Assembly: GCA_038087875.1 (NCBI GenBank)
Contig: CM075988.1
Coordinates: 17,114,001 to 17,178,000 of the forward strand
Direction: 5' to 3'
Source of the DNA: Malacoraja senta
Taxonomy: Eukaryota
Length of the DNA: 64,000 nt
The translations under genes were made by a program, and so were the position numbers. Below, piece after piece: positions 33,027-64,000 of the stretch (the first letter of the stretch is position 1; each line of letters begins with the position of its first letter). The notes under the pieces are model-generated. The model saw only the letters and a list, made by a program, of their open reading frames with translations. It was not told where the DNA came from and searched no databases.

Positions 33027-33400
33027 GTGTAGGAAAGAACTGCAGATGCTGGTTTAAATCAAAGATAGACACAAAATGCTAAAGTAACTCAGCGGGACAG
33101 GCAGCATCTCTCTCGAGAGAGAGAAGGAATGAGTGATGTCTCGGGTCGAGACCCTCTTCAGACTGATGTCAGGGGAGTGGGCGGTACATAGATAAGAACG
33201 TGTATAGATAAGGAAGTGCAAGGTGTGAAAACAGGACCACGGGAATGGAGATCAAGGAAAATGTAGAATAGATTATTAGTTGGGAGAAGGTAACAACAAA
33301 GCAGAGATAAAATGTAGTCGGAGACAGTAAGACTGGTCGGAGAACTGGGAAGGGGGAGGGGATGGAGAGAGAGAGAAAACAATGGCTACTTGAAGTTCGA
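33027..33400 (-). mobile_element. Penelope 3' terminal repeat fragment
   Basis: Similar to 16146-16360 (cttcagactgatgtcagggg...aatgtagtcggagacagtaagact). Confidence 0.75.
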
Positions 33401-34889
33401 GAACTACTTGAAGAATTTAGCAGGTTAAGCAGCATCAGTGGAACCAAAGGGATGATCGGAATTTTGTGTTGAAATTCTGCATCCGGACTGCAGAAATGTT
33501 ATCTTGACCTGATGCAGGATCTCAACCCGGAACACTGACCATCTTCTTGCCTCCACAAGTGCTTGACCCGCTGAGCTCCTCCAGCAGTTAGTTTATTTTC
33601 TAAGATATAAAATTTATTCCACTATGTGGTAAGTCCTGCATGGCCTGTAGACCAAAAATCAAATTAACATCTGTCTGTTTACAGCCAAACTGTTATCAGA
33701 TTACTAACATTGTCCAGCAAGTCGCTTTTTATTCCTCGAGTTCAATATTAATGTTAAGAAATGAAACAAAAAATAAATCATATTTTCAACTGTGAATAAT
33801 ACAGAGCTTTAAATCACAGCCTCTGCTGTCAATCACACGCAAAATACCCTAATAAGTAGGTCGGTCATACTGGGTAAATCAGAAAGTAACATTGTGCATA
33901 ACAGAGTGAATGTGTACGTACAGAGCGACATGCATCAATGAGGTATTTCACATCAATTCTTTCAAAGCCTGAGGTAAATACGTTGCTGGATAAGAGGAAA
34001 ATATATTAAAAGAGAAAGAAACTGTAAAAGTGAGGGATTCCTGAAATGGATAGGGAGATTCGAGTTTAGTGGAATTGCTTTTGGCACTTTATCATGCTCT
34101 GCCTTCATATCTACTGCAGTAATCCTTTATTCTTCAAAACGTGAAGTAAAATGAAAGCAAAGGGAAGGGGTGGAGGAATAAATTTGATGTCTTACTCAAA
34201 GATTTTTTTAACTTATGTAAGCATCAAACAAATTTCGTAAAAATTTATTTCAATAATTCAGAAGTTGAGAAATGATTTTTAAAATTGCACCAATGTGATT
34301 TGGTCCTTCAAGGACAGGTATCCAAGCATAAAGCAGACTGGGACACAGAAATAATATATTTCTGCAATCAGCGTATTCTCCGAGCTGAGAGCAAGATGCA
34401 GCATTGAAGAAGAAATTTGTTTTGTGAAAAATGTAATGCATCTATAGCAGAAAGGGTCTGAATCTTGAATAAATTACTTTAGTTTAGTTTGGTATCAATA
34501 TTCTTCAAAAAAAAATCTGAACTTAAAAAAAAATTATAGCAACTTCATTGAGCAATTATAAATGTAGAGTTTATATTCTCAATGTATATTGAATAATTTA
34601 AGATGCAACTAAATTGAACAAGGAGAAAGAAAATTAATTGCTGCAGTCTACAATGAGAATGTGATACTAACATTTGTAAAATCAGCTCATTGAAACCTCA
34701 AAAATTCATATTTCACATTTTGTTTAATGATTTTTTTAAATTAAAAAAATTAAAAATTGTTTTGCTTTGATAAAAAGAGATGCAAAATGAACCATGAAGC
34801 CCTGACAAAGTTCAAGTTAAAATGGTCAGTAACTTGTAGAGGTAAATAGGAATGAACCATTGTTGGCAAAACAACAGTTATAACTAGCA

Positions 34890-35203
34890 GGTAGACAAAA
34901 ATGCTGGAGAAACTCAGCGGGTGAGGCAGCATCTATGGAGCGAAGGAAATAGGCAACATTTTGGGTCGAAAACCTTCTTCAGACTGATGTGAGGGTGGGG
35001 GGCGCGGGAAGAAGAAAGGAAGAGGAGGAGCCAGTGGGCTGAGGGAGAGTTGAGAAGGGGAGGAGAAAGTAGGGACTATCTGAAATTAGAGAAGTCAATG
35101 TTCATACCGCTGGGGTGCAAACTCCAATTTACGGTAGTCCTCACTCTGGCCATGGAGGTGGCCCAGGACAGAAAGGTCGGATTCGGAATGGGAGGGGGAG
35201 TTG
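34890..35203 (-). mobile_element. Penelope 3' fragment interrupted by the ERV (continues at ~40813-40835)
   Basis: Shares gagaagtcaatgttcataccgct and terminal-repeat motifs with 16146-16380. Removing the ERV restores ggagggggagttg|aagtgctgagcc. Confidence 0.75.
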
Positions 35204-36458: not shown

Positions 36459-37300
36459 ATGGGTAATGGTATGGACACCAGTTGTCACCCGGACCGGCCA
36501 TTACATCAGCTATGTTTCTTGCATCCAGAAATGGAGGAGACCTTCAGGCGTATGTCGGGAGGACTCATTCATAAACTGGGGAAGGATGAATGGCCTGAAG
36601 GGGGTTCCAAGGATATGGGTGTGTTATCAAGGGCCCAGAGTGTAATATGGAAAAAGGATTTAAAAAAAAAATATATAAAAAGGCCATTCAGTTGTGGATC
36701 GATCATTGTAACGGAGAAAAGGCACGGTCTTTAACGGCCAGTTGGCAGAGTAATGCCTTGAAACTAGGAATACCCCTGACCGAGGGGGGTCAGGAGAAGT
36801 CGGTGACCGTATTAAAACAGGAATGTAGGCATGCTAAGGAAAGTAAGGATCGTCAGGAGAGAGAGAGACAAAATAAGGCCGAGGTAGATAAAGACTTACG
36901 TAAGTCGGTGGCTGGCATAGATTTGGGAGGTGACGACGAGGAGGAGGTAGAGGATTATCATTGGGGAGTCCGTGGAGCACCCCCGCTGAACCAGTCTGCC
37001 CCCGTTGCCAGTCCCGTGTCCGCTCGTCCAATTCCCGCTACCCGATCCAAGATTAAAACTCGCCCTTCACAGATACCAGTTTCCAAATCTCCCGTACCCT
37101 CGCTGAACCCCAGAAGACGGTCCCATTCAGGGGGGACCACAGGGAAGACAGTTTCCCCTAGTGCCCCTCCAGCAGACCGACCTCCTCCGTATTCTCCTGC
37201 TGCCCTACAATCTACCGACTCCGTGGGAGGCAGAACTAAGCTGAACCCCCGGACCAAAACCAGAAAGAATATGGCACAGCGGCGAACCCAATCCCTCTCC
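36459..37300 (+). pseudogene. gag: ERV gag remnant (matrix and late-domain region; capsid/NC deleted)
   Basis: Myristoylation-type start MGNG; WPEGGS matrix motif; frameshift in the A-run near 36660-36670; PSAP and PPPY late domains in ORF 36647-37339. Confidence 0.85.
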
Positions 37301-39605
37301 TACAGTATACATGGACCAAATAGCCACCGGGCTTTGTAAACTCGCCGACCCTATTTTCTGGTTGTCTGCAACAGCAATTACAAAACCTGCAGTTACCTGA
37401 GGGGTCTGCATTGATCCAGTACATCGATGAACTTTTTGTGGCTAGTGAAACGGAGGAGCAGAATAGGGAAGCTATAATTTTGTTGTTGAACTTTGTAAAG
37501 GCATTGGGGTACGTTGTGTCCCCCTCCAAAGTACATGTCGGACAAAAGGAGGTGAAATTCCTCGGAGTCATAATCTCAGCAGATGGCCGTCGGTTGGACG
37601 AGAGCCGCACGGACCCTATTTACAGGAATTACCCCCCACATCAGCCAGGGGAATGCGACAGTGGTTGGGAATGATACCTGACTCTCCAGCAGGACATTAC
37701 TGGATATTCCTCCCACTCCGTGACCGCCCTACTGGGACAGCTCCAGACCCAGCATTTGACTTCAGCCAGACAAAATAAGTATGAGATCTACCTGTTGAAT
37801 AATCCCTAGCTACAGTTCCGGCACTGCACCACTATCAACCCTGCTGCGTTTCTCTGCTCTCCTCCTGATCCCCTCGCTCCATGCGACCATAATTGCTTTG
37901 AGGCTATTCTCGCGGATACCAGTACGCTGACCTTAGCGATCAACCTCTAGCCTCTTCATTTTTGATCCTCTATACCAATGGAAGTTCATCCATCGACGAG
38001 CAGGGACGCCGTCTGTCAGGCTTTGCGGTAGTTAAACAAGATGGAACCTTGCTGGATTGTGGCAGTTTTGACCCACCGTTTTCAGCTCAGCAGGCTGAGT
38101 TGTTTGCCCTCACCCGAGCATGGGTTCTCGTGGAGGGGCGCTCCGTCAATATTTACACCAACTCCCAATACGCATTTGGAGTCGTTCACGATTTCGGACA
38201 GTTATGGAAAAATAGGGGATTCCTCACCTCGACGGGCCATAAGATTGCCAATCAGATCCTGGTCTCTGACCTGTTGAATGCTATCCTTCTGCCCTCTGCG
38301 GTAGCCGTAATCAAATGTGCGGCCCACACGACAGGAGATTCCCCGGTCCAAATCGGTAACAGGTTGGCTGACGAAGCGGCTAAGTGTGCTTCACGCGGTA
38401 GATTTAAAGTGGTGGGTAGTATGATGAGGCAGGTGAAAAGCCTTTATATGGGCTCGTCTGAATCTGAGAAACCTATGCCAACCATGAATGATGTATTGCA
38501 CTTACAGGGGGACGCCTCTGTTGATGTTATAATGGAATGGGAGCAGCTGGGCTGTCGGAAGGCTGACTCTGGATTGTGGCTCACGCCGGCCGGACAGACC
38601 TGTATGACAGACCAGTTAGCGACCTGGGTTGTTGATTGCCTACATCTAGCCACTCACTGTGGGGCCACCTTGCTAGTAGACGCTCTCTTACAGGCATAGT
38701 GGCATCCTCGACTTAAGGTTTTGGCAGCCCAAACTAGTGCACGGTGCCTCACCTGTGCTACACACAACCCTGGTAAAGGAGTTGTCTGCCAGACGGGTCG
38801 TACTCCATTACCTACTGCTCCGTTTGAAACCTTATAGATGGATTTTATTGATTTGCCTAAGTGTCAGTGTTATAAACATGTGCTTGTTATTGTTGATGTG
38901 TTTTCTAGGTGGATTGAAGCCTTTCCAACCACTGATTGCACTGCTTCTACGGTGGTGTCTATTTTATTACGGCAGTTTGTTCCTCGCTTTGGGGTTCCAA
39001 ACACCATCAGTTCGGATAACGGCCCTCACTTTATTGCCGCTATCAATAAAGAATTGTACCGACAGCTGGGCATAAACCAGCGGCTGCATTGTGCTTATCG
39101 CCCACAGGCTGCAGGAATGGTGGAACGCTTGAACCAGACCCTGAAGACCAAGCTTGCCAAGCTGGTGGACCAATCGGGCTCCACCTGGGTTAAAATGTTA
39201 CCTGTCGCCTTGTTTCAGATCAGAGTCCTTCCAGCAGGGAAGACAAGGTTGTCTCCTGCAGAGATCATCTATGGCCGACCCCTGCGCACCCCCTGGACAG
39301 ACATTATCCCGGCCACAACAAAATTGCATCATATGACGGAGGAGATGGTCTCTTACGTCCTTGCCCTTACAAGGGCCCTGCATGAGATTCATGGGGAGGT
39401 CAAGGCCGCTTATGTGGGCGATATAGATTTTCCCGTTGATGGACGGATCATATGTGTTGATTAAGAATTGGATTCGTAAGGACACCCTTTCTCCTTGATG
39501 GTTGGGCCCCTTCCAGGTTCTCCTCACCACCCCCACCGCGGTAAAGGTAGAAGGACGATCAGCATGGGTGCATTTGCACCATTGTAAAGTGGTTGGTGAC
39601 ACCAA
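37301..39605 (+). pseudogene. pol: ERV pol remnant (partial RT, tether, RNase H, integrase)
   Basis: QYTWT..P.GFVNSPTLF and LIQYIDELFVAS (RT); INPAAFL (tether); YTNGSS, SAQQAELFALTRA, YAFGVVHDFG (RNase H); MDFIDLP, SSDNGPHF, YRPQAAGMVERLNQTLK (integrase); [15 protein letters not shown]. Several stops, frameshifts and deletions. Confidence 0.95.
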
Positions 39606-39741
39606 GCAAAGGGGGGAGGTAGAGGTCAGGGAGGGGGATCCGGTCCACGAAAAGCAGGGTACGAATTAATTTTGCTATGAAATTGCACGTTCTTTTCTTT
39701 TTCCCTCCCTTGTGTTCGCAGATACGAAATAAATCGCTAAG

Positions 39742-40812: not shown

Positions 40813-41503
40813 GTTGAAGTGCTGAGCCACCGGGATATATGTTATAACTAGCATACTCCTGGAAGACAAATGTATTATTATTACCAAGGATGGGTCTGCT
40901 AACCTGGCTTCACAGCAGAAGGAAGATTCACCGAATCAAATTAGATTGTGAACACAGATTTGCAGATTACTGGCACTCAAAATCTAGGGTAAATCCTTAG
41001 TCAAATTACTAGGTTTAGTTCAAAAACCGCATTCAAATCCTATTGCCTAATTCCACTTAAAAAAAACAAAAAAACTGTTAAGTGAAGGTAGAGTCCCAAC
41101 ATCACTAAGGACAAAAAAGTAAAAGTGTGAGCAAATTAAGACATGATTACCTAATACTAATTTATTGGGCTGGGAAGAATGTGCTCATTTGTGACTGCTT
41201 TCAGAACAAACTTGAAATCAATACACAGAATGATGCTTTATCACTGGAAAACAGACTATTTCATCAAATGCCGTGCAACGTTACATGGTCTTGTCTCAAA
41301 AATGGCACAACTATCACCTAACCCGAGGCAACTGCACTTGTAAGTGCTTGTCACCCACATAACTATAAGGCTGATGCTATCAATGCTCACTGCATAACTA
41401 CTTCCATGAACTGCACACTTCTCTGCTGCCTAATATACAGGAAAGCCTGATTTTATAGTTCAACGACTCTCGACTATCTTTAGGCACGAACCGTCTTACT
41501 TAC

Positions 41504-43318
41504 CGTCTCTGCTGGCTCTCCATTACTCTCTTTGTGTCGCTCCTCAGTTCCAAGACTCCAGTTAGAAGTGTTACATGCTTCTTGATCAGCATTCCTATTA
41601 GGCTTTTCTGGTTCTGCCAATGCTGGGACAATCTGGCCAGGCTGGTGGTAAAATTGGGGGTTCTGCAAGGCTAATTCTTCAGACCCCGAACATTCAACTG
41701 CTTCCTGCAGCTCTTCCATTGATCCTGCTACTCCATGATCTATTCTAATAATTTCTTCTTCACAGTGTGAAGTAGGTGAAAGAATGGGTTGATTCTCATC
41801 ATTGTAAACAAATGAATCAAAGCCATCAGCTATACCTTCATTTTGTTTTGTGTATACATTAGGAGTTTGTCCTCTTATCATGTGCTCTGCATTTTTAGAA
41901 AAGTCTTTATTTTCACGATTTGCTTTAACTTTTTGAAGTATTTCCTGGTAAAATCTCTGTTCCTCTGAATAGGATGACTCCCCACATTTCTTGCGAGATG
42001 GAATTTTACGCCAGTTATCATATGCAATAGCAAGATTTTGTTTCAGTGACGAATATGAAGAGGGCAATGAGTCTATTTCTTTATCTGAATGGTTCAAGGT
42101 CTGATCAATACAAGGGTTAAAAGCATCTATGTTGTTCAACAAGATATTTTTCTCTGACTTAAAATCTTCAGTCTGTTCAGCGATGTCATTTACACCTTGT
42201 TTGTCTCTCTTTGGCTCATTATTTTTCAAACAATTTTCAGCATTAATCTGGTTCGGAGAGTTTACCTGCCCTTTCTCAGTAATTATTTTGCAAATGATTT
42301 CACAAATATTTGCTTCAGGAATTTTAAGATTGCCCACTATTCTCTTAATGTTGTCTCCTGTATCACAAGAAGTTCCTGCAGTTAAGACTTCACTTAAGAG
42401 GCTAAATGGCTTAAGGGTGGCATTTACTGATCCTACATTTGCAAATAATTCTGTGCTTTGTCCATTTTCTATTGCTTTAGTGTCGGGCATGCAGGGGTCA
42501 CATATTACCATATTAAGTTTGCATTGATTAGCTTGTACCTTTGTCGACATTTTCTGCTCCTCAACATCAAAAGTTGACATTATTTGATTATCAGCACTAA
42601 AGCAAAAGTAATTTTCCGTGTCACAAACTGGCAATACTACAAACCCTTCACTGCACTCTGGCAAGTGTTCAGTTTGCGTGTTTTCTTCTATATTACTTTG
42701 TGGCATCTCATCAATTGACTGATTATTCTGAACTGAATTACCTTCCTGCAGATTTTCAATTGAACATTTCTTATTTTCTATGTCACTGAATACAATTACC
42801 TGCTCCTCAAGTGCAAATGAATTTTTATTGTTGTGAGACAGTCGAGGTTCGGCAGCTTTATATTCTACTATAGGCTTCTTTGGTATGTTAGCTGGTTCTT
42901 TATTTGTTAAATGTCCCAAGATTACTCCATCCATATTGGATTCAAAGGAACTGAAGAATCTACCTGCCTCAGCGGCCATTCTGGCTTCTTCTGGTCTGTA
43001 CAGATCACGAGCTAGAAGTTTATGACCAAAAGGGAGAGCTCTTCCTAGAATTTTCTCAACATCTGAAAATATTTTTCGATGACAGCTTTCCCTTTTTAGA
43101 GGTTGTAGATTACTCAGGAAATTACCGGCTATACATTTATTGAATTGCACTGGCTTCAAAGATGGCTGCGAGGCACTAGCCTCTATTTGGTCTGTATCCT
43201 CAGGCTGGGTATTGTGCAAATACTCAACACTTGTAAAATGATGGAGTGGATCATGAGAGGAGCAAGCTACGCTAAAGTAAGACGGAGAAGGAAGTATTCC
43301 TGCTTCTAACGGGCTTCC
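41504..43318 (-). CDS. CEP164: Large phase 0-0 cassette exon of CEP164 (605 codons, acidic, probably disordered)
   Basis: The 579-aa ORF extends upstream without a stop to acceptor tcctttgtttag|GGA (AG at 43319-43320) and ends at donor ACG|gtaagt. Length 1815 nt is a multiple of 3. Same strand as, and between, phase-0 CEP164 exons. No TE domain recognised. Confidence 0.8.
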
Positions 43319-44730
43319 CTAAACAAAGGATAAAAAAAAGGCTTAAAACAAAGTGAAGTTTACCTAGGATTTATATTAAATATTTTGTGTCCCACATGGG
43401 AATAACACTACATCTTCCACGCTATTATTCTTGAGAATACTAATAAAGATTATTTGCAGCACTATGTGTCCTCCCACACTGTAAGTGGACCTACACAAAC
43501 CATGCTTGCGTGTGCAACCCTAAAGAATATGAAAATCATTTGAAATAATAGGATACTGTACAATAATGTTCCAGGTTACGAAGTGGAGAAAACCTGGACA
43601 CATTACTAATGCATGTTACTGAGTTTACTTATCCCATGTGTATTGTATTTTAAAAGTAGATGATTCAAGCATAAAAACCTAACAGATGTGCAAGGAAATG
43701 CAAACTATCATTACTATTAAACACCATTGATGTCATTCCCTTCCTACGAAAAGATTATTTTTCCTTTCACTGTTTCTCACCATTCATAAAACGCATTTTC
43801 ATATTTCCGATCTGAATACAAAAATATACTTTTTTAACGAGCTTGTTTTCAAGCTCTTACAGTTCAACACGTTTTAAATATTTTAAAACCACATTTTAAC
43901 ACTTCCAATAATGTACAAATGTGAAAAAGCCCCACACAACATTTTTCTCATACTTTATGACATAATTTATCCCAAATGGTATGATACTATTTACACCAAA
44001 TTTTGTAAGATTTCTTCAATGGAAATACAAACATTAGTGTGTCCTTACCTTCTGGAAATTAATGGTTAAGTTCATCTTGATTAAATATTCACTATGGAAA
44101 TTACTGGAGTGCTAGTGGTAGCTGAAATAGTTGCAGTAAATGCTGAAGAGGATGTTAAAGCAATGATGCAAAATAACTACATGTAGATTTCAATTACATA
44201 AAACTTTAGTGCATCAAAAGAGCCTTAAGAAAGAATGTGACTGATCGCTCGTCCCACTTATACAATGAAGAGCTGAACCATAGCAACAAGGCGCACGTAC
44301 AGATACAGAAAAGATGCAAAAGAGTAACAGTAGAATCTGCCCAAATGGTTGCAATGGTATTTACCCACCACAAATGTAATCATGGCCGTGCCAAATTACT
44401 TCTGTCATTGCCAAGTTACAATGCCTAGAGGTAGGAAAGACAGGGCAGCACAAATTGCTGGGTTCCCATTCCAAAATTATAATTCTATGAGTTTGTAAGT
44501 GCGAATAGCGGATGTATCTGGCAAATAACTAGCTCTTATTTATTCTGAAAGCTCATGTATGTGCATTTGCTCAAGATGGTAGCCAGAAAAACAAACCAAA
44601 TGCAACAGGAATCAATGCCCTCAGGAGAAGAAAAATAAGCTTAAAAAGGTAAGAAAGATAGGATTTCTATATTACTACATTCTGCTCTACGTAGAAAAAC
44701 TTACTGTATTAATATTAAGTGGATTATTAC

Positions 44731-44929
44731 CATATTAAGTGGATCTTTTTCTTTCTTCTCCTTCTTCTCTTTCTTCTTTTTCTTTTCTTTCTTTTTGCTT
44801 CCACCTGGAGTGTGCAGTTTGTCACGTTCCATAGAAACCAGGTTTCGGTATTGCTCATCACATGGATGGTCCCAGGTTGACTGGCCCGATACAAAATTAA
44901 AGTAATAGACATCACCTGTGACGTCTTGG
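44731..44929 (-). CDS. CEP164: CEP164 coding exon 3: WW domain and Lys-rich tract ([28 protein letters not shown]...[22 protein letters not shown])
   Basis: ORF 44701-44952 carries the WW motif YYFN...S.WDHP. Acceptor tag at 44930-44931, donor ATG|gtaata. 199 nt; cumulative CDS 393 nt, phase 0. Confidence 0.96.
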
Positions 44930-45439
44930 CTACCTCGAGAAAAGTAAAGCATTCATTTAAAATTATAATTTTCAAACGATATTCAAAAAGCCATTATAAA
45001 TCTTGCTTATGCTCCTACATATATTATGCTAAACATCCTTGATAAAAAGAAATCTGAAAGCAAAATACTGAATGCTGGATGCAGAGTTAATATTTCAGGT
45101 TGATGATCATTTATCAGTGCTGATGAAAGGTAATTTCTTTGAAAAATTAACTCTGTTCCTGTCTTCACAGATCTTGCGTGACCGGTTTAGTATTTAGAAT
45201 TTTCTGTTTAGTAATTGTAAAGAGCAAGCGGGATAAGATGTTTTTATGAGATTAAATAAAATTAAACTGCGAAAATAGTGACACACATCTCAAAGGATAC
45301 TCCAGTCAAGTGATCTAACAATTCAAAATCAAAATTGATTATTCTGAGAAATAGTACTGAATAATATAAATAAGATGGGAAGATTCTAACAAAGAAAACA
45401 GATTGGGAGCTTCAGATTAACATTTTGAAAGTGGAGGAA

Positions 45440-45865: not shown

Positions 45866-47757
45866 GCTGCCGTTTTCATGCTACTCTCAACCAAATGCAG
45901 TTGACCGACATTTAGATCAGCTGCACCAACAGCTCAAGTTCAAATCAAACTGTTTTAATAATGTATCTCCGAAGTAGTTCAGATGTTTTGTAATGTTAGC
46001 AAGGATTACAAACATTAATCCTTGTTATCATCATAGCATTACATCAATGGAGACAAAAATCATTTCCTCAGACTAATACAAGGAACTGGAATTTTAATGA
46101 AAGACCTGGTTAATTTGAGTTAATCCCCAAAAGTTAAAAATAAAGAACACAGTTAACGATAAATAATGGTCATTCCAACTGGTTGCAAAATTTAAATACA
46201 AACTATATCTTTCTAGAATTCAAGATCAATGGTATTCTATTGTCATGTGTAGCCAAGTACAGTGAATTTCTTGTTTTGCATATAGTCCAGTAATAATCCT
46301 GCTAAGTATAAGTGTAAGATAGTAGACCACACTGAGTCCGTACACAAGAGTCACCACATTTTAGGCGCCATATTGGACCATTCGAGTGAAAAGGGGAAAC
46401 TATACTTACAAAGTTACAAACATTTCCTCAAAGATGATTAATTCATAGATAATGGCCACCAACAAAGGACAAAATAATCATGAACATTTATCAGGTATTG
46501 TTTGAAAGCAAGGTGAATTCCACGTACAAATAAAGGTCAGAGGAAATTGGCTGAAATGTGGAATTCTTTTTTAATGCCACTTCCTCTTGGCAAGGTCTTG
46601 ATCACAACATTAGTCCAAACAGAAAAAGCTGAGAATCTAGAGTTCAGTGAGAAGCACCATGACTATAATTTTTGAAAAAGCTTAACTGGCCAAGCAGCTT
46701 GTTTCTGTTCCCTGACAAAAGATGACAGAAGAAGATATCCTTAATGACAATTCATTAAAGATTTAGTTTAATTGAAACACAACCACTTTTAAAAGTTAAT
46801 TCACGAAAGAAATTTAAATTTTAGATCAAACTTTAATGGATTGTCATTGAAGACCAATTCATCACAATATAAAGATACCATATTTTAGATCAAATTTTCC
46901 TTAAGTGGATTATGACCTTATTAAAGCTGATTTTTATGTAGGCTCTACTGAACTTTAAAATGGTTCATTTATGATTAAACAAACACTGCCTACTCTTCGC
47001 AGAATCCTATAATTAAGCAATAAATGTCGGTAGCCCCAAGTGCACAAAAGAATAAATGGCTCCTGTGCGCTACGCGGCATTTAATCATCAGGCAGCAGCT
47101 GTTTTTATTTTTTGCCAAGCGAACCCTGGACTGCCAACATTTGTTTCACATTACTTTTTGTTCGAGGTAACATGCATTGTTTTAATAAACTGGTTAAAAT
47201 ACAGACATTGAAAAAAGGTCTATGGGACTCTATTTCCTTCAAATACATGGTGCATTCACACCAAATTTAGAAACATTGTCAAACTCCCCCCATCCAAACA
47301 CTTTCACTCTTTGCTCTGTAGATCTCCCTTGATATCTTCAATGGAAGTGATCTTGCAGAACTTTGTAAATTGCATTGTTTAGTTAGGATCTGATAAAACA
47401 AATGATGCATACAAAATAGGAGAGTAGATATTTTACAATGAGACATTCTTCAAATTGTTTTTTTTCGGCACAGTGCACTGTATCCAATAATTTGTAATAG
47501 AATAGTAAAGTATAAATTGGATGAACAAAAAAGATAAAATGAAATATCAAAATAACCTTCGTTCATATGGAATAATATTTAAGTAAGCTGGTACACTCTT
47601 TGCCTTTTAGAGGCAAAAAGATAACAAAATAGTTCTTCTGAACACAATGAACACAGTTAAAGTTAAATAATGGCCCAAATGGCCACTAACATTTCATATG
47701 CATCTTTATACCTTACTGAAATCACATCCCAAACTGTGAAATCTACTGCCATCTTAC

Positions 47758-47869
47758 CAAGGTTTCCATTCCTGGGGTAAAGGTGCCACTATGCCCTCCC
47801 TGGCTAACCACATCAACTCTGGTTCAGTTTCAGGGTCAATTCCAATCTCCCGGGCATATTCATGGATTT
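47758..47869 (-). CDS. CEP164: CEP164 coding exon 2 ([37 protein letters not shown]), start of WW region
   Basis: ttctttttcag acceptor and TG|gtaaga donor; 112 nt; phase continues from the previous exon; [17 protein letters not shown] is a CEP164 signature. Confidence 0.96.
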
Positions 47870-50557
47870 CTGAAAAAGAAAAGTTACATATAAGAGGTTA
47901 TAATTTTTTTGTGAATTTATAGAGGTACCACAATGCACATGAATGTTGAGTATTGTGAAACTCTGATGGGACACCATGGCAATTGGATGTCTCCAAATGA
48001 CCAAAGGATAACATTCAGAGTTAATGCATTCATCTCCAACATGTCATGATATGAATCGATATTTACCGAGATTACTCGATATTATCCTTCTTTCATTATT
48101 TAGTCATCTAAAACTTTAAGACAGTTATGCTCACATTCTTTTTTTGCAAGAGGGGCAGGTTGACAATCCAAATCATTTCTGACGGTTACTCGCACAACAT
48201 GAAAACTCATGGAGTTCAATGACACAAGACTGACTTTCTGTTGTTTCACAGCACTTGCGCTGTAGCATTGTACCAGTACAGGTTTAGCAGCTCCAAGCAC
48301 TTCGCTGCAGATCAACGGCTCCGAAGGGGAAGTAACATTTATATTTTGAGTTGAATTCAATGTATTTAAATGTTTTTTGTTTATTTTGGTTGTAATTTTT
48401 TTCAATTTTAATAGTCTTTTTGAAATATATACTTCCAATATGCTATTTTAAATAGTTTTAAATGTGTTTTTTTTTAAAATATTTCTGAATAATAGATATT
48501 CAAAGATATTCAAAGCCTGGGACATGGTTTAACTAGCTGTCAAAGCATTTTTTTTGAGCAGGGTTATCAATTTTAATGCATACGGTTCCCATTTAAACTT
48601 GTTGCAATAACTCAGGCATCAGTGGTTAAAATGGGAATAGTGCGTATTAAAAATTAATAATGCAATCAGCAGTGTCAGTTATTTCTTGAACTTCCACGAT
48701 ATTGAAGTCTTCAGCTCAATTTAGAGACAATCGCTTGCTACACGAGAAAATCTCAAAGTCGGATTGAAACTAGTTTGTGTCAATTGAGAACAAAACTAAA
48801 ATTAATTGAATTAATTATTGGGTTGGCTTGAAATATTTGATTCGGGGAAAAATATACATGTTTAATACATGTGAATTAAGTAACTATGAGGTAAAATTCC
48901 TCGTAAAAGAGTGTTGGAATTCTCACCAACACTGTACTTGGGTAGAGATGGGTTCTCATTTTTCACTGACCAAACCAAACATCCAGCATTGTTAGATGTG
49001 ACCTGCAGGTTGCATGTTGTGCATCACTGCTTTATGCCCAAAATGAATTCTGGACTGAAAATAAAGTGACCATATGGAACATTCATTTTCAGATGTGGCC
49101 GGATATTGATAATCTCAGACGAGCCAATTGAAAATGAAAGCTCTACCCTGTACATTATTTCAATGAAAAACTTTGAAATATATAGCAAATGTCCCCTCCT
49201 GGATGAGACTGAATGCATCACAAATGATTCACACTGTGAACCATGGGAACGTCTGTAGTCTTCAAACAAATGCAAAGCAGCACATATTCCCTCTAGAGGC
49301 TCCAACAATCATCATCAGTCAGCATTAACCATTGCTAAGAGATCTATCTATTGACAGTTGCATTACTGATTATGCCATTCTTGTGCAGAAGAAAACTCAA
49401 AATCCATTTCTTACTACTGGAAATCACAGCTTCACAGTGGTCTATTATGCAAAACAAAAGAATATTAATCCCTCGTGTGAAAACAGAAATAGAATGGTGA
49501 AACTAAAATTCAAACTGTAACAAACTGATTAACTAATTATGGCAAAAAAAAGTTTAATTTGTTTATATTTCTTGGTTTACAAGAACTTCCTCAAAAGCCT
49601 TGTTCATAATGTCACACCCTTTCTTCCCACTGTCAGTCTGAATCAATTAAAAGCAATATAAAATACACTGCAAAAACATATGTTACAATGAGCAGAACAG
49701 AAGAGGAGGGGGGGGGGGGGGGGGAATAAGGGAACAAATATATCCCAAGAAGTTATTCTCTTGAAGAGAAAAAATATATAAAATTACATATTAAAATATG
49801 TCATAGAAAGATACAGCATGTAAATAGGTGCTTCGACACAGCATCCATACTAACCATCAAGCACTCATTTATAGCAATCCTACATGAATCACATTTTTAT
49901 TAAATTACCGTATTTTTGCCATAAGAGTGAAGATTTATTGTGCCGATTACATCACTATTTGTAAGGCAGTTAAAGTATAACCATTATTTGAACAATACTG
50001 CCCTCTACTGCACTTCACAGAGTCCCTTTGAAATGCTGGGAATACCAGTAACATAAAGTTATATCAGTTATAAATATTTGTTCACAAATTAATTACAAAA
50101 TATTTTGGCTTGCACATGTTCTGACTTAATATGGACAATTTCTTTGACAAGTAACTAGTTTGGAAAATATCTAATTTTTGTAAGGTGCTTGGGAATGTTC
50201 CAAAGCTAGGCACAGTAAACATTAGTTAAGTTTGCTTCTCTAAAAAGATAATGCAAATATTATTGGGGAAAATGAACATAAATAAGTTGAAGCATTACAC
50301 ATATTTAAGAACACTGTTAATTCTGGCCAAATTGGAGTTGCCAGGACACTAAAAATGAGTAAAGGTTTCTGTGCTGCTAGGCCATTTGGTTAATTTAAAT
50401 GTGCCTTCTGCAGAACTGGGACAAGCTGCTAAATGGTGCAAGTTTGTCTGGAGCCTAGATAAGAACTGCAGGGAAAGAATGGGACATCTGCAGATTCTTA
50501 CAATTAGGTGTAAATTGCATGAAACGAATTGGGTGAATGCAAACCAGACATACACAT

Positions 50558-52009: not shown

Positions 52010-52215
52010 GAAACAGAGAACTGCAGATGCTGGTTTATACCAAAGATAAACACAAAGTGCTAGAGTAACTCAGCGGGTCAGGCAGCATCTCTGGAGAAAA
52101 AGGATGGGAGACTTTTCGGGTGAGAAGGGTCCAGACCCAAAATGTCACACATCCTTTTCCTCCAGAGATGCTGTGTGACCTGCTGAGTTACTCCAGCACT
52201 TTGTGTCTATCTTTG
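52010..52215. mobile_element. Palindromic Penelope-terminal-repeat-derived element
   Basis: gaactgcagatgctgg...cacaaagtgctagagtaactcagcgggtcaggcagcatctctggag followed by its inverted copy. Confidence 0.75.
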
Positions 52216-56656: not shown

Positions 56657-56738
56657 CTTGTTCACTAGGGATGTAGTTTTCATCGTAATCCTCTTCAAGG
56701 ATTATTTGGTCCCCTATCCGAAGTGCAGTTGCTGTCAT
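56657..56738 (-). CDS. CEP164: CEP164 first coding exon ([28 protein letters not shown])
   Basis: ATG at 56738. Translation matches the vertebrate CEP164 N-terminus as I recall it ([22 protein letters not shown]). Acceptor tttattttatag at 56767-56768, so the exon with UTR starts at 56766. Donor CAAG|gtattt. 82 coding nt. Confidence 0.95.
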
Positions 56739-57028
56739 TTCAGTCTAAAAGTGCGACGGTGCTTCCCTATAAAATAAAGAGCAAACTTATGTGAATTAAA
56801 CCACAGAAGTAAAATTAAAACACAAAACATTTTATTTTAATTTAATTGCTAATGTGACTGCTCAGGATGACTATAGTAAGAAAATAGAATCAAAGTCAAT
56901 AAATTTATTCTCTGAAATATCAAAAGGAATGTCTCACATTTTATTTGAAGGAGGTTGCTTCTCATTAAATAAAGCACACAAATACATCCTAACTAGAGAA
57001 AACACCAGCCTAGTCACCAAACATCCCA

Positions 57029-57029
<1 letters not shown>

Positions 57030-57092
<63 letters not shown>

Positions 57093-57100
57093 CTATCTAT
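57030..57100. repeat. (TATC)n microsatellite; a second tract at ~58157-58203
   Basis: Directly visible. Confidence 0.95.
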
Positions 57101-60100
57101 CTATATTATACTATTAAAACTCTGTGGCTGCCTGACTTGTGTCTGCCATCCGCCTGACTTGTGTCACAAATCCCCTTTGATACCGCCCCAGGCCCACACA
57201 GCACGCGGAGACGCCGATATTTTTTACCATTTCTAAAGAGATTACATTTATCTTTACGAATAGACACTCCTGATTAAATTTCTTCCTGTTTATGTGGAGA
57301 CGCCGATATTTGTTACCATTTCTAAAGAGATTACATTTATCTTTACGAATAGACACTCCTGATTAAATTTCTTCCTGTTTATGTACACATTTTTTTAATG
57401 AAATACATCACCCCCCCCACCCTCACTCACTCATTTTGTCTCCTCCTGCTGGTCACCCACCATAACTGCTGCTGTCGACCGCCACTGCTCCGAAAACGAC
57501 GCCATCTTTTTTTCGCTAGCGATTTTCACCCCGGGGTCTGAAGCACCTTCGGGATCTCACACCCCGGGGTCTTAAGCACGTTCGGTGTCCAGACCCAACG
57601 GGTCTGCACTTGGTCTAGTATACTATTAAAACTCTGTGGCTGCCTGACTTGTGTCTGCCATCAAATCCCCTTTGATACCGCCCTAGGCCCACACATCACG
57701 CGGAAACGCCGATCTCTTTTACCATTTCTAAAGAGATTACATTTATCTTTACGAATAGACACTCCTGATTAAATTTGGTCGTGTTTACGTACACATTTTT
57801 TAATAAAATCCATCACCCCCCCCCACTCACTCATTTTGTCTCCTCCTGCTGGTCAGCCACCATAACGGCTGCTGTCGACCGCCTCTGCTCCGAAAACGAA
57901 GCCATCTTTTTTTCCCTAGCGATTTTCACCCCAGTGTATGAATCATCTTCCGACTCTAAAACCCCGGGTTCTGAAGCACGATCAGTGTCCAGGGGTCTGA
58001 AGCACGTTCTGAATTTTCACCCCGGGGTCTGAAAATGTTCTGGGTTTTTTTCGCTAATGATTTTCACCCCGGGGTCTGAAGCACGTTCGGGATCTCACAC
58101 CCCGGGGTCTTAAGCACGTTCGGTGTCCAGACCCAACGTGTCTGCACTTGGTCTAGTATCTATATCTATATCTATCTATCTATCAATCTATCTATCTATC
58201 TATCTATAAAACTCTGTGGCTGCCTGACTTGTGTCTGCCTGACTTGTGTCTGCCTGACTTGTGTCCGCCTGACTTTCACCAAATCCTCTTTGATACAGCC
58301 CCTGGCCCACACAGCGTGCGGAAAGGCCCATATTTTTTACCATTTCCAAAGAGATGACATTTATCTTTACGAATAGCCACTCCTGATTAAATTCGGTCGT
58401 GTTTATGTACACGTTTTTAAAAATAAAATCCATCCCCCCCTGACCCCCACGCGATTTTCTCCGATTGTCTCAGATTTTCTCCAAAAACGACGCCATTTTT
58501 TTCCCGCCGATTTTCTCCGAAAACGACGCCATCTTTTTTTCGCCGATTTTCTCCGATTTTTCCGAAAACTACGCCATCTTTTTTTCGCAGATTTTCACCC
58601 CGGGGTCTGAAGCACCTTCGGGAACAACACCCCGGGGTGTGAAGCACTTTCGTGGACCAGACCCAACGGGTCTGCACTTGGTCTAGTATTATATTAAAAC
58701 TCTGTGGCTGCCTGACTTGTGTCTGCCATCCGCCTGACTTGTGTCACAAATCCCCTTTGATACCGCCCTAGGCCCACACCCACACACCATTTCTAAAGAG
58801 ATTACATTTATCTTTACGAATAGACACTCCAGATTAAATTTGGTCGTGTTTGTGTACTTTGTGTACAATTTTTAAAATAAAATATTTTATACCATTTCTA
58901 AAGAGATTACATTTATCTTTACGAATAGACACTCCAGATTAAATTTGGTCGTGTTTGTGTACAATTTTTAAAATAAAATACTACTCCCCCCCCACCCCAA
59001 CATTTCAAAATGTTAAAAAAAGAGCTCTCAGCCATAGAATGTTAGTGCCATTTCCATTGTGTGATGTCACAATGCCCGATGCTCACACATGTCCAATCGG
59101 AATGGATCCATTTACATATGCCTTTGCAGCAGCCCCAGCCACAGCCCCTCCCCCCCAACCTCACAGCCTGTGTCGAAGGGTGTCGTCACGTGTGTGGGGG
59201 TGATAGGGAATGGGGACATTTCAAAATGTTTTTTAAAAAAGCTCTCAGCAATAGAATGTTAATGAAGGTTCCGTTTTGTGATGTCACAATGCCCAATGCT
59301 CACAGATGACAAATCGGAATGGATCCATTTACATATGCCTTTGCAACAGCACCAGCCCCTCCCCCCCACCCCCGCAGCCTGTGTCGAAGGGCGTCGTCAC
59401 GTGTGTGGGAATAGAGAAAGAGGATTGGGGGTGATAGGGAATGGTGAACAGATGGACTGTCCCTACCCCTCCTACTTCCACGCTCCCTCCCCACTCTTCC
59501 CCCTCTCTCCTCTCCCGCTCCCTCCCCTCCAACACCCTCTCTTCCCCCTCCACAACTCCTCTTCACCCCCATCTCCCCCCCACCCACTTCCCCTCTCACT
59601 TGAACCACTCCCCGCTACCCCTCACTCCCCACTCTTCACCTCTACCTCCCCCACCTCTCTCCCTCCACCCTCCCTCTCTCCCTCTCTTCCCCCTACTCTT
59701 CTCCCCTTCCCCCATCCCCTCTCTCCAACTCTAACAACCCCTCCCCCCCTCTCCCCCCTTCCTGCCCTCCCCGCTCTACCACTCCCCACTCTCCTCCCCC
59801 TCCCTCGCCCCCACCCTGCTCTCTTCTCCCTCACCAATCTCTCCCCTTTCCTCCTCCCCCTCTCCCCTCACTCCACCTCTCCTCTTCTCTCCCCACCCCG
59901 TCTCCCTCTCCCCTCTTCTCTCCCCACCCCGTCTTCCTCTCCCCCCCTCCCGCCCCCCCCCCGCCTGTGTTTGGGGGGTGGTTAGTGTGAGTGTGATGCC
60001 GCAGCATCCCCCCCCCTCAAACGCGCGTTGGGGAAACAGCCCGCCAACAGTCTCTCTGTCTTTAAGACGGAACTGCAGATGCTGGAAAATCAAAGGTACT

Positions 60101-60359
60101 CAAAAAAAAGATGGATAAACACAGCGGATGCAGCAGCATCTATGGAGCGAAGGAAATAGGCAACTCTTTTGGCCGAAACCCATCATCAGACTGGTTTTGT
60201 CCCGAAACGTTGCCTATTCCTTTGATCCATAGATGCTGCTGCACCCTCTGAGGTTATACAGTTTTTTAATGTGTACCTTCGATTTTCCAGCATCTGCAGT
60301 TCCGTCTTAAAGACAGAGAGACTGTTGGCGGTCTCACTGTTACCAGTCTCACTGTCTCT

Positions 60360-60395
<36 letters not shown>

Positions 60396-63300
60396 CTTCT
60401 CTCTTCACAGCCTGCGGATCGAATCATGCACGGCCACTCCAAAAACACCCCCCTCACCTCTCTTCCCCCATCCTCTCCTTCCTCTCTCCACCCCCATCCT
60501 CTCTCCCCACCTTCCTCCCCCCCCTCCTCACAATTTTTTTTCCTAACATTAAATTTTCTCTCTGTGCCCCCCCACCCTCGAGATGCACCTGAGAGGTGAG
60601 GGCTATTCGTCAGTGGATAGGGTGGAGATGGGATTAAAGAAGACAATTAAAATATTAAGATAATATAAAGGGGTGTGATGAGTGTGTATGTTTGTTGGTG
60701 CCATATTCACACCCCACAACCGTGCTTTGGAGGTACAGACCCAACGGGTGGGTGGTTAATTTGACGCCACAGCTCTCCCCCCCCCCGCACGTTGGGGAGA
60801 CAGACCCAACGGGTCTGCACTTGGTCTAGTAATATATTAAAACTCTGTGGCTGCCGGCCGCCTACCGTCCGCCACCCCTCTTCACCCCCATCTCCCCCCC
60901 CCACCTGCTTCCTCTCTCTCTTGCACCACTCCCCGCTACCCCTCTCCCCCTCACTCTACCCCTCTCCCTCCCCCTCCTCTCTCCCTCCCCCTCCCTCTCT
61001 ATCCCCCTCTCTTCCCCTACTCCTCTCTCCCCTTCCACTCATCCCCTCCACCTCTAACATCCCTTCCGCCTTCTCCCACCTCCCCTACCGCTCTCCCCCT
61101 TCCTGCCCTCCCCGCACTCCTCCCACTCCCCACTCTCCTCCCCCTCCCTCTCCCCCCACCCTGCTCTCATCTCCCTCCCCAATCTCTCCCCTTTCCTCCT
61201 CCCCCTCTCCCCTCCCTCCCCTCTCACCCCCTCCCCTCTTCTCTCCCCACCCCGTCTCCCCCCCTCCCCCTGCCTGTGTGTTTGGGGGTGGTTAGTGTGA
61301 GTGTGATGCCGCAGACCCCCCCCCCCGCAAACGCGCGTTGGGAAAACAGTCCGCCAACAGTCTCTCTGTCTTTAAGAAGGAACTGCAGATGCTGGAAAAT
61401 CAAAGATACACAAAAAAAAGCTGGAAAAACTCAGCGGGTGCAGCAGCATCTATGGAGCTAAGGAAATAGGCAACGTTTCGGGCATAAACCAGTCTGAAGA
61501 TGAGTTTCGGCCCAAAACATTGCCTATTTCCTTCGCTCCATAGATGTTGCTGCACCCGCTGAGTTTCTCCAGCTTTTTTTGGTGTACCATTCTCTCTGTC
61601 TCTCCCCTCTCTCTCTCTCTCTCTGCCCTTCTCTCTGCACGCCCGCTCCAAACACCCCCCCCACCTTCACCTCCCTTCACCTCTCTCCCCCATCCTCTCC
61701 TTCCTCTCCCTCCATCCCCCTCCCCCCCTCCAACCGTGCTTTGGAGGAACAGACCCAACAGGTCTGCACTTGGTCTAGATTTCTCGCTCCTGATTAAATT
61801 TCGTCGTGTTTATGTACACGTTTTTAATAAAATGCTTCTCCCCCACCCCCCCCCCCACCCCCGAAATTTCAAAATGTTAAAAAAAAACAGCTCTCAGCCA
61901 TAGAATGTTAGTGAAGGTTCCGTCTTGTGATGTCACAATGCCACAATGCCCGATGCTCACACATGTCCAATCGTAATGGATCCATTTACATATGCCTTTG
62001 CAGCAGCCCCAGCCCCTCCCCCCCACCCCCGCAGCCTGTGTCGAAGGGCGTCGTCACGTGTGTGGGAATAGAGAAAGAGGATTGGGGGTGATAGGGAATG
62101 GGGAACAGATGGACTGTCCCTACCCCTCCTACTCCCACTCTCCCACCCCACTCTTCCCCTTCTCTCCTCTCCCACTCCCTCCCCTCCCACCCCCTCTCTT
62201 CCCCTCCACCACCCATCTTCACCCCCATCTCCCCCCACCCCCTTCCCCTCTCTTGCACCACTCCCCGCTACCCCTCTGCCCCTCACTCCCCAATCTTCCC
62301 CTCTCCCTCCCCCACCTCTCTCCATCCCCCATCCCTCTCTCCCTCTCTTCCCCCTACTCCTCTCCCCTTCCCCTCATCCCCTCTCCACCTCTAACATCCC
62401 CTCCCCCCCTCTCCCCCCTTCCTGCCCTCCCCGCTCTCCTCCCACTCCCGCTCTCCTCCCACTCCCCACTCTCCTCCCTCTCCCCCACCCTGCTCTCTTC
62501 TCCATCACCAATCTCTCCCCTTTCCTCCTCCCCCTCTCCCCTCCCTCCCCCTCTCCTCTTCTCTCCCCACCCCGTCTCCCTCTCCCCACTCCGTCTTCCT
62601 CTACCCCCTCCCGCCGCCTGTGTTTGGGGGTGGTTAGGTGAGTGTGATGCCGTAGCCCCCCCCCCCCTCCCGCAAACGCGCGTTGGGGAAACAGCCCGCC
62701 AACAGTCTCTCTGTCTTTAAGACGGAATGCAGATGCTGGAAAATCGAAGGTACACAAAAAAAAGCTGTATAACCTCAGAGGGTGCAGCAGCATCTATGGA
62801 TCAAAGGAAATAGGCAACGTTTCGGGACAAAACCCGTCTAAGGATGTGTTTCGGCCAAAAGCGTTGCCTATTTCCTTCGCTCCATAGATGCTGCTGCACC
62901 CGCTGTGTTTCTCCAGTTTTTTTTTGTGTACCAGTCTCTCTGTCTCTCCCCTCTCTCTCTCTCTCTCTCTGCCCTTCTCTCTTCACAGCCCGCGGCTCAA
63001 CTCATGCACGCCCGCTGCAACCCCCCTTCACCTCTCTCCCCATCCTCTCCCCACCCCTCTTCTCTCTCCCCGTCCTCCCTCCCCCTTCCTCTCCCCCTCC
63101 TCACAATTTTTTTTTTCTAACATTAAATTTTCTCTCTCTGCCCCCCACCCCCTCGAGACGCACCTGAGAGGTGAGGGCTATTCGTCAGTGGATAGGGTGG
63201 AGATGGGATAAAAGAAGCAAATTAAAATATTAAGATAATATCAAGGGGTGTGATTTGTGTGTGTGTTTGTGGGTGCCAGATTCCCACCCCGCAACCGTGC

Positions 63301-63409
63301 TTTGGAGGAACAGACCCAACGGGTGGGTGGTTAGTGTGACGCCGCAGCCCCACCCCCCCCGCAAACGCACGTTGGGGATACAGACCCAACGGGTCTGCAC
63401 TTGGTCTAG
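57100..63409 (+). mobile_element. Tandem head-to-tail array of six non-autonomous Helitron-like units
   Basis: Units end in hairpin AGACCC-AAC-GGGTCT (single mismatches in two copies), then gcacttggt and CTAG, at 57618, 58156, 58686, 60829, 61778 and 63409. Five units start with TC/TA...TAAAACTCTGTGGCTGCC. No TIR or TSD seen. Confidence 0.8.
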
Positions 63410-64000
63410 TAACATATAAAAACAAATACATTTACACATATATAATATTTACAGCGTTTTGTTTTCTAGACATAACAAGATTACAAAAGGCATGTTTTCC
63501 AATTGCACATCATTAAAATTGTTTCAATTCCACTACTTTTGAAGGTCCAATTTATAATTTTTTGACTTCAGCATCTGTAAAGTTCAATATATATTTCAAA
63601 TCCCCTTTAATTGATATTTCACAGAACTGCGTGTGGGCATGTGCCACCATGTTATTGTACATTTCTATAAATACGTCATAATGGAGTTCATTTTTAATAC
63701 TTGTATGAGTTGAGAATGGCTTTCCAATGACTGAAGATGAGGATGACTTCCCAATTTCTTATCAGGTTGGGGTGATAATGAAACTGGACTGGAAGTATAC
63801 ATTGTGATAAGAGTCAAAAGCATTGGCAAGTGCAAACTGAACCCTTCTTCATTTTTTTAATTCGAAAGACAGCACTTCTGACAGCACAGCACTTAAATAC
63901 TAACTGTAGTGCTGATAGAAGCATGTGTTCAAGTCTCTCAGGTGTGACTTCAACTTGTAACCTTAGGATTAAAGATGGAAAATGCTGCAGTATTAACTAA

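Follow-up and report, generated by a model that had tools for sequence, protein, structure and literature searches.

The window, that is, the whole 64-kb stretch of DNA analysed here, contains a head-to-tail array of six abutting units in the same orientation, which fit non-autonomous canonical Helitrons (HLE1) and which were probably brought together by serial self-insertion, new copies landing in the AT-rich leader of resident ones. This origin is favoured because the preferred target of the element resembles its own leader. The array and its surroundings are as follows.

56657..56766, minus strand: first coding exon of CEP164 (ATG at 56738, acceptor AG at 56768-56767), in opposite orientation to the array
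57031..57099, plus strand: (TATC)n microsatellite at the left array edge (TRF 57031-57104, period 4, 18.8 copies)
57100..57618, plus strand: unit 1, short subfamily, 519 bp, CTAG end, the only intact leader, A|TCTATATTATACTATTAAAAC
57619..58156, plus strand: unit 2, short subfamily, 538 bp, opening with the 8-nt spacer TATACTAT and no TC; one hairpin stem mismatch
58157..58686, plus strand: unit 3, short subfamily, 530 bp with the TATC stretch counted in
58157..58206, plus strand: 50-nt TATC-type stretch after the 58156 junction, TA + TCTATA + TCTATA + (TCTA)n
58687..60829, plus strand: unit 4, 2143 bp, of the long subfamily, with spacer TATTATAT and a C/T-rich tract
60830..61778, plus strand: unit 5, 949 bp, spacer TAATATAT; sequence diverges after GGCTGCC; A, not T, after its end
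61779..63409, plus strand: unit 6, 1631 bp, of the long subfamily and truncated at its 5' end, right array boundary, 83-86% like unit 4
63410..63423, plus strand: host target flank TAACATATAAAAAC, differing from the leader of unit 5 at 2 of 14 nt

Termini and structure of the units

Scanning of the 64-kb window with the 28-nt 3' terminal motif revealed six matches at no more than three mismatches (shuffle mean 0.00, n=100), ending at 57618, 58156, 58686, 60829, 61778 and 63409; four of them were exact and two had one stem change. The 5' motif TAAAACTCTGTGGCTGCC was found as five exact matches (57115, 57627, 58207, 58695 and 60838; chance mean 0.10), and neither motif was matched in the window outside the array. 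The six shared 3' ends, with about zero expected by chance, and the five shared 5' ends reported in the preliminary description are thus confirmed, and its size range of about 0.5 to 2.1 kb agrees with the measured 519-2143 bp. The 3' hairpin CAGACCC-AAC-GGGTCTG has a 7-bp stem followed by 8 nt and CTAG, the stem stopping 12 nt short of the end; the 6-bp stem with a 9-nt spacer given earlier is the same structure counted differently. The stem is perfect in four of the six units and has one mismatch in the other two. When the last 40 nt are folded, this hairpin is the structure of minimum energy in three units, an alternative hairpin being preferred in the remaining three.

The units represent three structural subfamilies, 71-88% alike across the longer shared modules, and their order (short, short, short, long, other, long; 519, 538, 530, 2143, 949 and 1631 bp) is not periodic. 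Units 1 and 2 display 96% identity across the last 112 nt, and units 4 and 6 are 83-86% identical over about 1.9 kb. Unit 1 contains an internal 89-bp tandem duplication (57207-57384), its hairpin being located at 57590-57606. A captured palindromic repeat is present in unit 4 (60038-60334), and palindromic repeats lie in unit 5 (61348-61591) and unit 6 (62693-62932); units 4 and 6 also carry relic inner hairpins (60737-60749 and 63312-63324, respectively).

Element class and related systems

In the Helitron superfamily, the RepHel transposase nicks at the 5' TC and stops at the hairpin-CTAG terminus. All six units end with a CTRR terminus in the form of CTAG, and in five of them TA follows. 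Unit 1 begins at A|TC (57099-57100) beside a (TCTA)n tract, which makes its 5' boundary ambiguous, while TC is absent at three junctions. Terminal inverted repeats were absent: when the first 100 nt of each of the six units were compared with its last 100 nt, the inverted matches reached 5-7 nt at most. Comparison of the right flank with the two candidate left boundaries (57030, 57099) gave no target-site duplication longer than 2 nt; the single 2-nt TA match sits in an AT-rich microsatellite. Judging by these sequence features (hairpin and CTAG, T after five of the six ends, no inverted repeats), the earlier assignment to non-autonomous Helitrons holds.

The three longest ORF-like stretches of the array had no match in Pfam, and Rfam gave no matches in the window. 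The long Pro/Ser-rich ORFs of the array were rejected as genes, as they derive from C/T-rich tracts and had no Pfam match. The exact 3'-end pattern was found in neither viral contigs nor prokaryote genomes (0 in both); three metagenome loci with this pattern were attributed to chance, since they shared only the 19-nt pattern (in two cases up to 28 nt at 93%) amid unrelated flanks.

As far as the available portions of the published descriptions allow comparison, the array units are similar to HelibatN of Myotis (PMC4778049) and to Heli1Xen1, which occurs in Xenopus and further vertebrates (PMC12001565), in the probable TC start with a TA-rich leader, the subterminal hairpin, CTAG, the 3' T and the lack of inverted repeats, and also in very high copy number, subfamilies with captured sequences and abutting copies. 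The hairpin arm TAACGGG of Heli1Xen1 has AACGGG in common with the array hairpin, which is only a lead (PMC12001565). Unlike both families, compared by description, the array is a stack of six copies, drawn from three subfamilies, in which the TC-less spacer has a constant length of 8 nt. The units also share a 3' stem-loop, non-coding nature and short tandem repeats near the 5' end (here a 15-bp unit, 58215-58275) with the DINE-1/HINE elements of the Helentron/HLE2 group (PMC4067079, PMC11417382), but, in contrast to Helentrons as characterized in the accessible part of PMC11417382, they possess a CTAG end, no T|T and no subterminal inverted repeats of 11-18 nt.

As a type, the element is a non-autonomous Helitron of the ordinary kind, and Helitrons that lie in tandem, abut one another or have self-inserted are already in print. 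Abutting Helitrons were reported in Myotis (PMC4778049), and in Fusarium and Metarhizium a Helitron was described as inserted 2 bp from, or within, another copy's 5' end, a fungal three-copy tandem being ascribed either to 5'-end insertion or to rolling-circle replication, with the choice left open (PMC5148889). The fungal elements differ from the array units in being non-canonical FoHeli, and the accessible text of that paper describes neither a leader-mimicking target motif nor a stub-derived microsatellite. No description of such a Helitron family in skates was found in the literature searched (mainly non-subscription, main texts), on which the species family lists in the supplements of PMC11417382 and PMC12001565 may bear; likewise, a search of mainly non-subscription literature yielded no paper on Helitrons in Amblyraja, and for elasmobranchs it brought up a single one, on the whale shark.

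Abundance and the right boundary in public contigs

Public contigs from four of the 22 runs listed, representing four organisms, were aligned to 891 bases of the window. The summed depth in the bin 63380-63409 relative to the single-copy flank reached about 71,500 (run X21), 51,800 (X1), 23,100 (X2) and 3,600 (X7), these depth sums not being copy numbers. In all four runs the depth dropped sharply past 63409, to the level of the flank or near it by 63440-63470, and many contigs with the 3' end had long, poorly agreeing flanks (agreement 0.36-0.40). The 3' terminus is, therefore, a very high-copy, genome-wide repeat, and the view of a locally amplified family has to be abandoned, since this end is repeated genome-wide in four organisms at thousands to tens of thousands times the single-copy depth. 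The expectation that the terminus is kept at other loci proved correct for the 3' end, seen in many contigs with unrelated flanks in the four runs.

X7 record 32 (855 nt) aligns to 63410-64000 only, starting exactly at the T of 63410; it has another 192 letters towards the element on the strand reading made (74 on the other reading) and is a probable empty site in a relative. X2 record 16 and X21 record 24 begin at 63393, within the element end, and the latter, which may come from the source sample, shows 0 differences in the 608 nt that it covers across the right junction. The right junction is common to an organism with about 5% flank difference (31 substitutions in 594); run X1, having zero cover at 63470-63829, is uninformative on the site.

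Junctions and target preference

The three junctions described earlier as direct do abut, at 57618, 58686 and 60829; they are not, however, CTAG|TC joints, each opening with a different 8-nt AT-rich spacer (TATACTAT, TATTATAT and TAATATAT, respectively) without TC. CTAG|TC occurs at none of the five junctions, and that between units 5 and 6 reads CTAG|A, unit 6 being devoid of a 5' end. The intact leader of unit 1 consists of TCTATA, 9 nt and TAAAAC. Positions 58157-58170 read TA, TCTATA, TCTATA, the hexamers starting at 58159 and 58165. The 8-mer spacers are more variable than the 18 nt after them. The same junction exists elsewhere, as 21 contigs of run X21, among the matches listed, show the 5' motif followed by other internal sequence past 63423.

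Among the matches listed, the consensus of loose ends after CTAG-TA displayed TATAT at 3-7 and AAAA at 10-13 in all four runs, with an agreement of 0.46-0.51 over 31-64 contigs per run; these rows (24 among the matches listed, 482 further) are conditioned on alignment stops and come from related organisms. In the control, random draws of 45 A|TA sites from the window matched the pattern in 15 of 2000 cases, the maximum agreement being 0.42. Rows at 63420-63422 were left out of the target preference, because the alignment selects flanks like that at 63410. The host flank at 63410 departs from a leader at no more than 2 of 14 nt, a closeness reached by a single site among the 9623 other A|T sites that the window contains. 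Part of the loose-end rows may represent head-to-tail joints and not host targets.

Proposed origin of the array

By serial self-insertion, the units would have been moved in trans by a RepHel transposase, and the array would have been built by separate insertions, not by one replication run. The target preference on the 3' side would be roughly T-A-x-x-(A)-T-A-T-(T/A)-AAAA, and the element's own leader, TCTATA|TA..TATTAAAAC, would offer the preferred site right after base 6. Helraiser, in the portion of the work available, likewise favours AT-rich targets, most strongly on the 3' flank. Unit 6 would be the first copy, entering host DNA at 63410, and later copies of the three subfamilies, all facing the same way, would each have landed in the leader of a copy already present. 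To the right, every such insertion would leave CTAG followed by 8 nt of TC-less spacer, and to the left a TCTATA/TCTA stub; slippage would then stretch the stubs into (TATC)n. The order of events, the origin of the stubs and A|T at the empty site are what we infer from the present arrangement. The left (TATC)n microsatellite was possibly seeded by leader stubs in this manner, and 58157-58206 is a candidate, recognized post hoc, for a stack of stubs left by nested insertions and subsequently altered by slippage: its TA, TCTATA, TCTATA order is the expectation for three nested insertions, the first stub being split by unit 2.

Several observations speak against serial self-insertion. Unit 1 has 9, not 8, nt after TCTATA, which would imply a T|T cut or a 1-nt indel; slippage within (TCTA)n can itself yield TCTATA hexamers, and the stub count was fitted afterwards. 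The left microsatellite contains no separate TCTATA stub, though one is expected from the insertion of unit 2, the leader of unit 3 is altered, and the CTAG|A junction together with the truncated unit 6 requires an extra deletion.

An unlikely but not negligible alternative is a mosaic, in which one or two insertions were followed by 3'-end bypass (two-unit composite transposition) and by local unequal recombination or duplication. The near-identical tails of units 1 and 2 and the similarity of units 4 and 6 fit it, the internal tandem duplications and the relic hairpins inside units 4 and 6 (at 60737 and 63312) testify to rearrangement and to the extension of ends, and both end bypass and compound Helitrons are documented in those parts of the literature available to us. 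Taken alone, however, the mosaic leaves unexplained why the 8-nt spacers lack TC and differ at all three junctions, as well as the likeness of the host flank to a leader, and the non-periodic unit order does not favour it either; it can coexist with serial self-insertion.

A rolling-circle concatemer, integrated once and diverged in place, appears improbable. Tandem arrays in plants, bats and X. laevis have been ascribed to rolling-circle replication (as cited in the portions available of PMC5876387, PMC11934779 and PMC12001565), and the same-orientation, head-to-tail arrangement of abutting units resembles these arrays, of which those of X. laevis comprise 2-7 repeats; the right junction common to an organism with about 5% flank difference would also have allowed time to diverge. 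However, Helraiser circles are described, in the text accessible, as having precise end-to-end joints, so that CTAG|TC would be expected at the junctions, and one template should give like units, whereas these are heterogeneous in size and structure, with three architectures and differences of 12-29%, well above the flank divergence. The TC-less junctions with three spacers and the 71-88% unit likeness argue, therefore, against one concatemer, and the rolling-circle tandem array implied by the preliminary description is weakened.

Still less probable is a non-canonical 5' end at TA, with which the three 8-nt junctions would be exact head-to-tail joints. The spacer is indeed exactly 8 nt at all three such junctions, and the same register is observed in the 21 X21 contigs among the matches listed, but unit 1 carries the same leader out to A|TCTATA, the 8-mers vary more than the following 18 nt, and the same motif is present in host DNA at 63410. 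An assembly artefact or another repeat class (Helentron/HLE2, MITE, satellite) is very improbable: although, with 891 bases covered, neither a read nor a contig was observed to bridge the array, a false duplication would not give units as dissimilar as these, X21 record 24 passes over the right junction without differences (with the reservation as to its source made above), and the units have no 11-18 nt inverted repeats and end with CTAG|T, not T|T.

Returning to serial self-insertion, one may tentatively extend it to a self-targeting Helitron, a generalization we regard as possible rather than probable. Its transposase would recognize a target's 3' side in the way it recognizes the 5' end of the element, and the leader would act as a landing pad of fixed register; each round would add a unit and a TCTATA/TCTA stub on the left, so that arrays would log the order of insertions, and piles of stubs would seed (TATC)n genome-wide. 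If self-targeting is true, some 10^4 copies, distributed unevenly across related species, would provide material for studying how Helitrons choose their targets and one way in which microsatellites arise. Of modest value is the occurrence, outside bats, of a vertebrate Helitron family as abundant as this one; of some interest is the stacking rule. Junction anatomy offers a countable way to separate serial self-insertion from rolling-circle concatemers.

Position relative to CEP164

The translation of the CEP164 start exon matched human CEP164 (7nwj_A) in phmmer with E 1.4e-08, and the next exons were located at 47757-47897 (E 3.7e-16) and 44704-44952 (E 2.7e-17). The placement of the array upstream of this exon, about 330 bp from its acceptor, is borne out: the gene lies on the minus strand, and its acceptor is separated by 332 bp from 57100 and by 263 bp from the microsatellite that flanks the array. 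With the copy number so high, an intronic insertion near CEP164 is to be expected.

Composition of the array and assignment of its units

The array consists of six Helitron-like units, arranged head to tail as follows.

57100-57618, plus strand, unit 1, 519 bp
57619-58156, plus strand, unit 2, 538 bp
58157-58686, plus strand, unit 3, 530 bp
58687-60829, plus strand, unit 4, 2143 bp
60830-61778, plus strand, unit 5, 949 bp
61779-63409, plus strand, unit 6, 1631 bp

The array is a real feature. Across the 64-kb window, a 28-nt terminal motif (at most three mismatches) matched six times, all within 57591-63409 (chance mean 0.00), and an 18-nt 5' motif matched exactly five times (chance mean 0.10); both were absent from the remaining 57 kb, and the six 3' ends and five 5' motifs of the preliminary description were thus recovered. 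The terminal hairpin, CAGACCC-AAC-GGGTCTG, followed by 8 nt and CTAG, is perfect in four of the six units; when the last 40 nt were folded, it gave the lowest energy in three units, and another hairpin was favoured in units 2, 4 and 6. We are highly confident that the units are Helitrons. Judging by their sequence features (CTRR end, hairpin, dispersed 3' end, absence of TIR), they very probably are non-autonomous members of HLE1, the canonical Helitrons, whereas features of HLE2, the Helentron class, were not displayed. No Pfam match was obtained for three ORF-like stretches of the array. The kind of element is already known, and the array adds a further member; no description of its family was found in the skate Helitron literature, and it may bear a name in repeat libraries. 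Judged by its repeat content, the host is probably a skate or another cartilaginous fish. The 3'-end pattern had no match in viral or prokaryote collections, and its metagenome matches were dismissed as chance.

Units 1-3 form a short subfamily, and units 4 and 6 a long one, 83-86% alike across three blocks; unit 5 has only its first 21-26 nt in common with other units, and what follows is similar to the central part of the long form. Likeness between units amounts to 71-88% in the longer shared modules and reaches 96% between units 1 and 2 in their final 112 nt. The long forms contain a palindromic repeat, which was captured, since further copies (70-90% alike) occur in the window outside the array:

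16144-16242, palindromic repeat copy
19033-19263, palindromic repeat copy
33030-33109, palindromic repeat copy
34889-34986, palindromic repeat copy
52018-52120, palindromic repeat copy

The repeat core of unit 4 (60095-60277) is flipped relative to those of units 5 (61407-61588) and 6 (62749-62930): against unit 6 the match is 92.8% in reversed and 81.7% in direct orientation, against unit 5 it is 89.4% and 82.2%, respectively, while the cores of units 5 and 6 agree best in direct orientation (90.5%). The second arm of the repeat is longer in unit 4. The flip suggests a hairpin-mediated inversion, which perhaps occurred on a single-stranded intermediate.

Junctions and possible origin of the array

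Three junctions had been described as direct; the head-to-tail abutment was confirmed, but not a direct joint of CTAG to an element start, as these junctions consist of CTAG, an 8-nt AT-rich, TC-less spacer, different each time, and TAAAAC. Another junction reads CTAG, TA, TCTATA, TCTATA, (TCTA)n, TAAAAC, and the unit 5|6 junction is CTAG|A, leading into unit 6 with a truncated 5' end.

It is established for the superfamily that its RepHel transposase initiates at TC and ends at hairpin-CTAG, and Helitrons form circles with precise joints and insert at A|T, AT-richness being greatest on the 3' flank (PMC4778049; PMC5876387). The leader, TCTATA|TA..TATTAAAAC, might itself be a favoured target, so that new copies would enter old leaders. 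Such insertion would predict TC-less 8-nt spacers, as observed at three junctions, stubs (leader pieces left behind) toward the left, and an intact leader at the far left only, in unit 1, where the leader is indeed intact with one T extra relative to the prediction. Three nested insertions (5 into 6, 4 into 5, 3 into 4) would pile up three TCTATA stubs, and entry of unit 2 into the first of them at TCTA|TA would give TA, TCTATA, TCTATA, the reading of 58157-58170. The agreement is a post hoc one, and TCTATA hexamers can also result from slippage. The separate stub expected from unit 2 was not found in the tract left of the array, the leader of unit 3 is altered, and the unit 5|6 junction requires an extra deletion under this model. 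Serial self-insertion into resident leaders is the origin that we moderately favour; that the family as a whole is self-targeting, its leader serving as a landing pad where stubs are left, is proposed only tentatively.

A mosaic produced by end bypass and local duplication seems unlikely for the array as a whole. Relic terminal hairpins lacking CTAG lie 65-70 nt inside the true ends of units 4 (60737-60749) and 6 (63312-63324) and look like 3'-end extension via bypass or subterminal duplication; unit 5 terminates with this inner hairpin type. Abutting Helitron copies are described in Myotis (PMC4778049); in X. laevis, tandem arrays comprise 2-7 units (PMC12001565), and fungal copies have inserted beside or within the 5' ends of others (PMC5148889). 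Leader-mimicking targets or stub-seeded microsatellites are not mentioned in the passages of the Helitron literature examined. Derivation of our array, in which no CTAG|TC junction occurs, from a single concatemer is quite improbable, and a family with TA as its 5' start is more improbable still. An artefact or another class of repeat is hardly credible.

Dispersal of the family and likeness of target to leader

Short-read contigs from four of 22 candidate public sequencing runs, each of a different organism (X1, X2, X7 and X21), were aligned over 63110-64000 at 85% likeness; the matches listed comprise 24 loose-end rows, with 482 more beyond the listing, and 32 pieces, with 15,177 more beyond it. 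The summed depth of bin 63380-63409 was about 71,500 (X21), 51,800 (X1), 23,100 (X2) and 3,600 (X7) times that of the single-copy flank, and it dropped sharply past the CTAG end at 63409. These ratios are not copy numbers and indicate no more than an order of thousands to tens of thousands. X21 record 24, possibly from the source sample, spans the right junction from 63393 with 0 differences. X2 record 16 begins at 63393, inside the element end (31 substitutions in 594 letters), and the site is therefore occupied in that relative. The alignment of X7 record 32 starts exactly at 63410 (30 substitutions), and its element-side leftover (192 letters on the favoured strand reading, otherwise 74) is unlike the element; this record probably represents an empty site. 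X1 gives no information here. The family is therefore dispersed and common to related species and not, as the preliminary description had proposed, locally amplified.

The right host flank, from 63410 on, differs from the three junction leaders by 2, 3 and 4 mismatches over 14 nt; of the 9623 A|T sites elsewhere in the window, one comes within two mismatches of a leader. After CTAG-TA, the loose-end consensus among the matches listed had TATAT at positions 3-7 and AAAA at 10-13 in all four runs, although the rows are conditioned on alignment stop points, come from related organisms and may in part represent head-to-tail joints. When 45 A|TA sites of the window were drawn at random 2000 times, the same consensus arose in 15 draws. 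In X21, the 5' motif and then another interior follow position 63423 in at least 21 contigs, and the same junction type therefore exists at other loci.

At 63411, one X7 contig (organism C) runs past CTAG-TA with TGTATTAAAAC and then back into element sequence; as read from its sequence, it is a leader-like joint in another species.

CEP164 and other features of the window

CEP164 lies beside the array on the minus strand, three of its exons matching human CEP164 chain 7nwj_A (E 1.4e-08, 3.7e-16 and 2.7e-17). Its start-exon acceptor is 332 bp from unit 1, in agreement with the approximately 330 bp reported earlier, and from this position the array would lie within a CEP164 intron. Other features are:

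16344-16985, minus strand, 213-aa reading frame adjoining one palindromic repeat copy, no Pfam match
24824-25234, minus strand, Tc1/mariner transposase fragment (Sleeping Beauty HTH, Pfam, E 1.8e-24)
36599-39665, plus strand, fragmented retrovirus-like insertion, Pfam domains in separate frames
37902-38696, plus strand, RNase H of this insertion (Pfam, E 4.9e-17)
38838-39461, plus strand, integrase core of this insertion (Pfam, E 1e-16)
41480-43318, minus strand (that of CEP164), open frame of 612 codons downstream of the WW-domain exons, no Pfam match

A 246-aa frame upstream in the retrovirus-like insertion had no Pfam match. The 213-aa frame presumably resembles a retrotransposon reverse transcriptase, and the 612-codon frame is possibly a large lineage-specific exon of CEP164.
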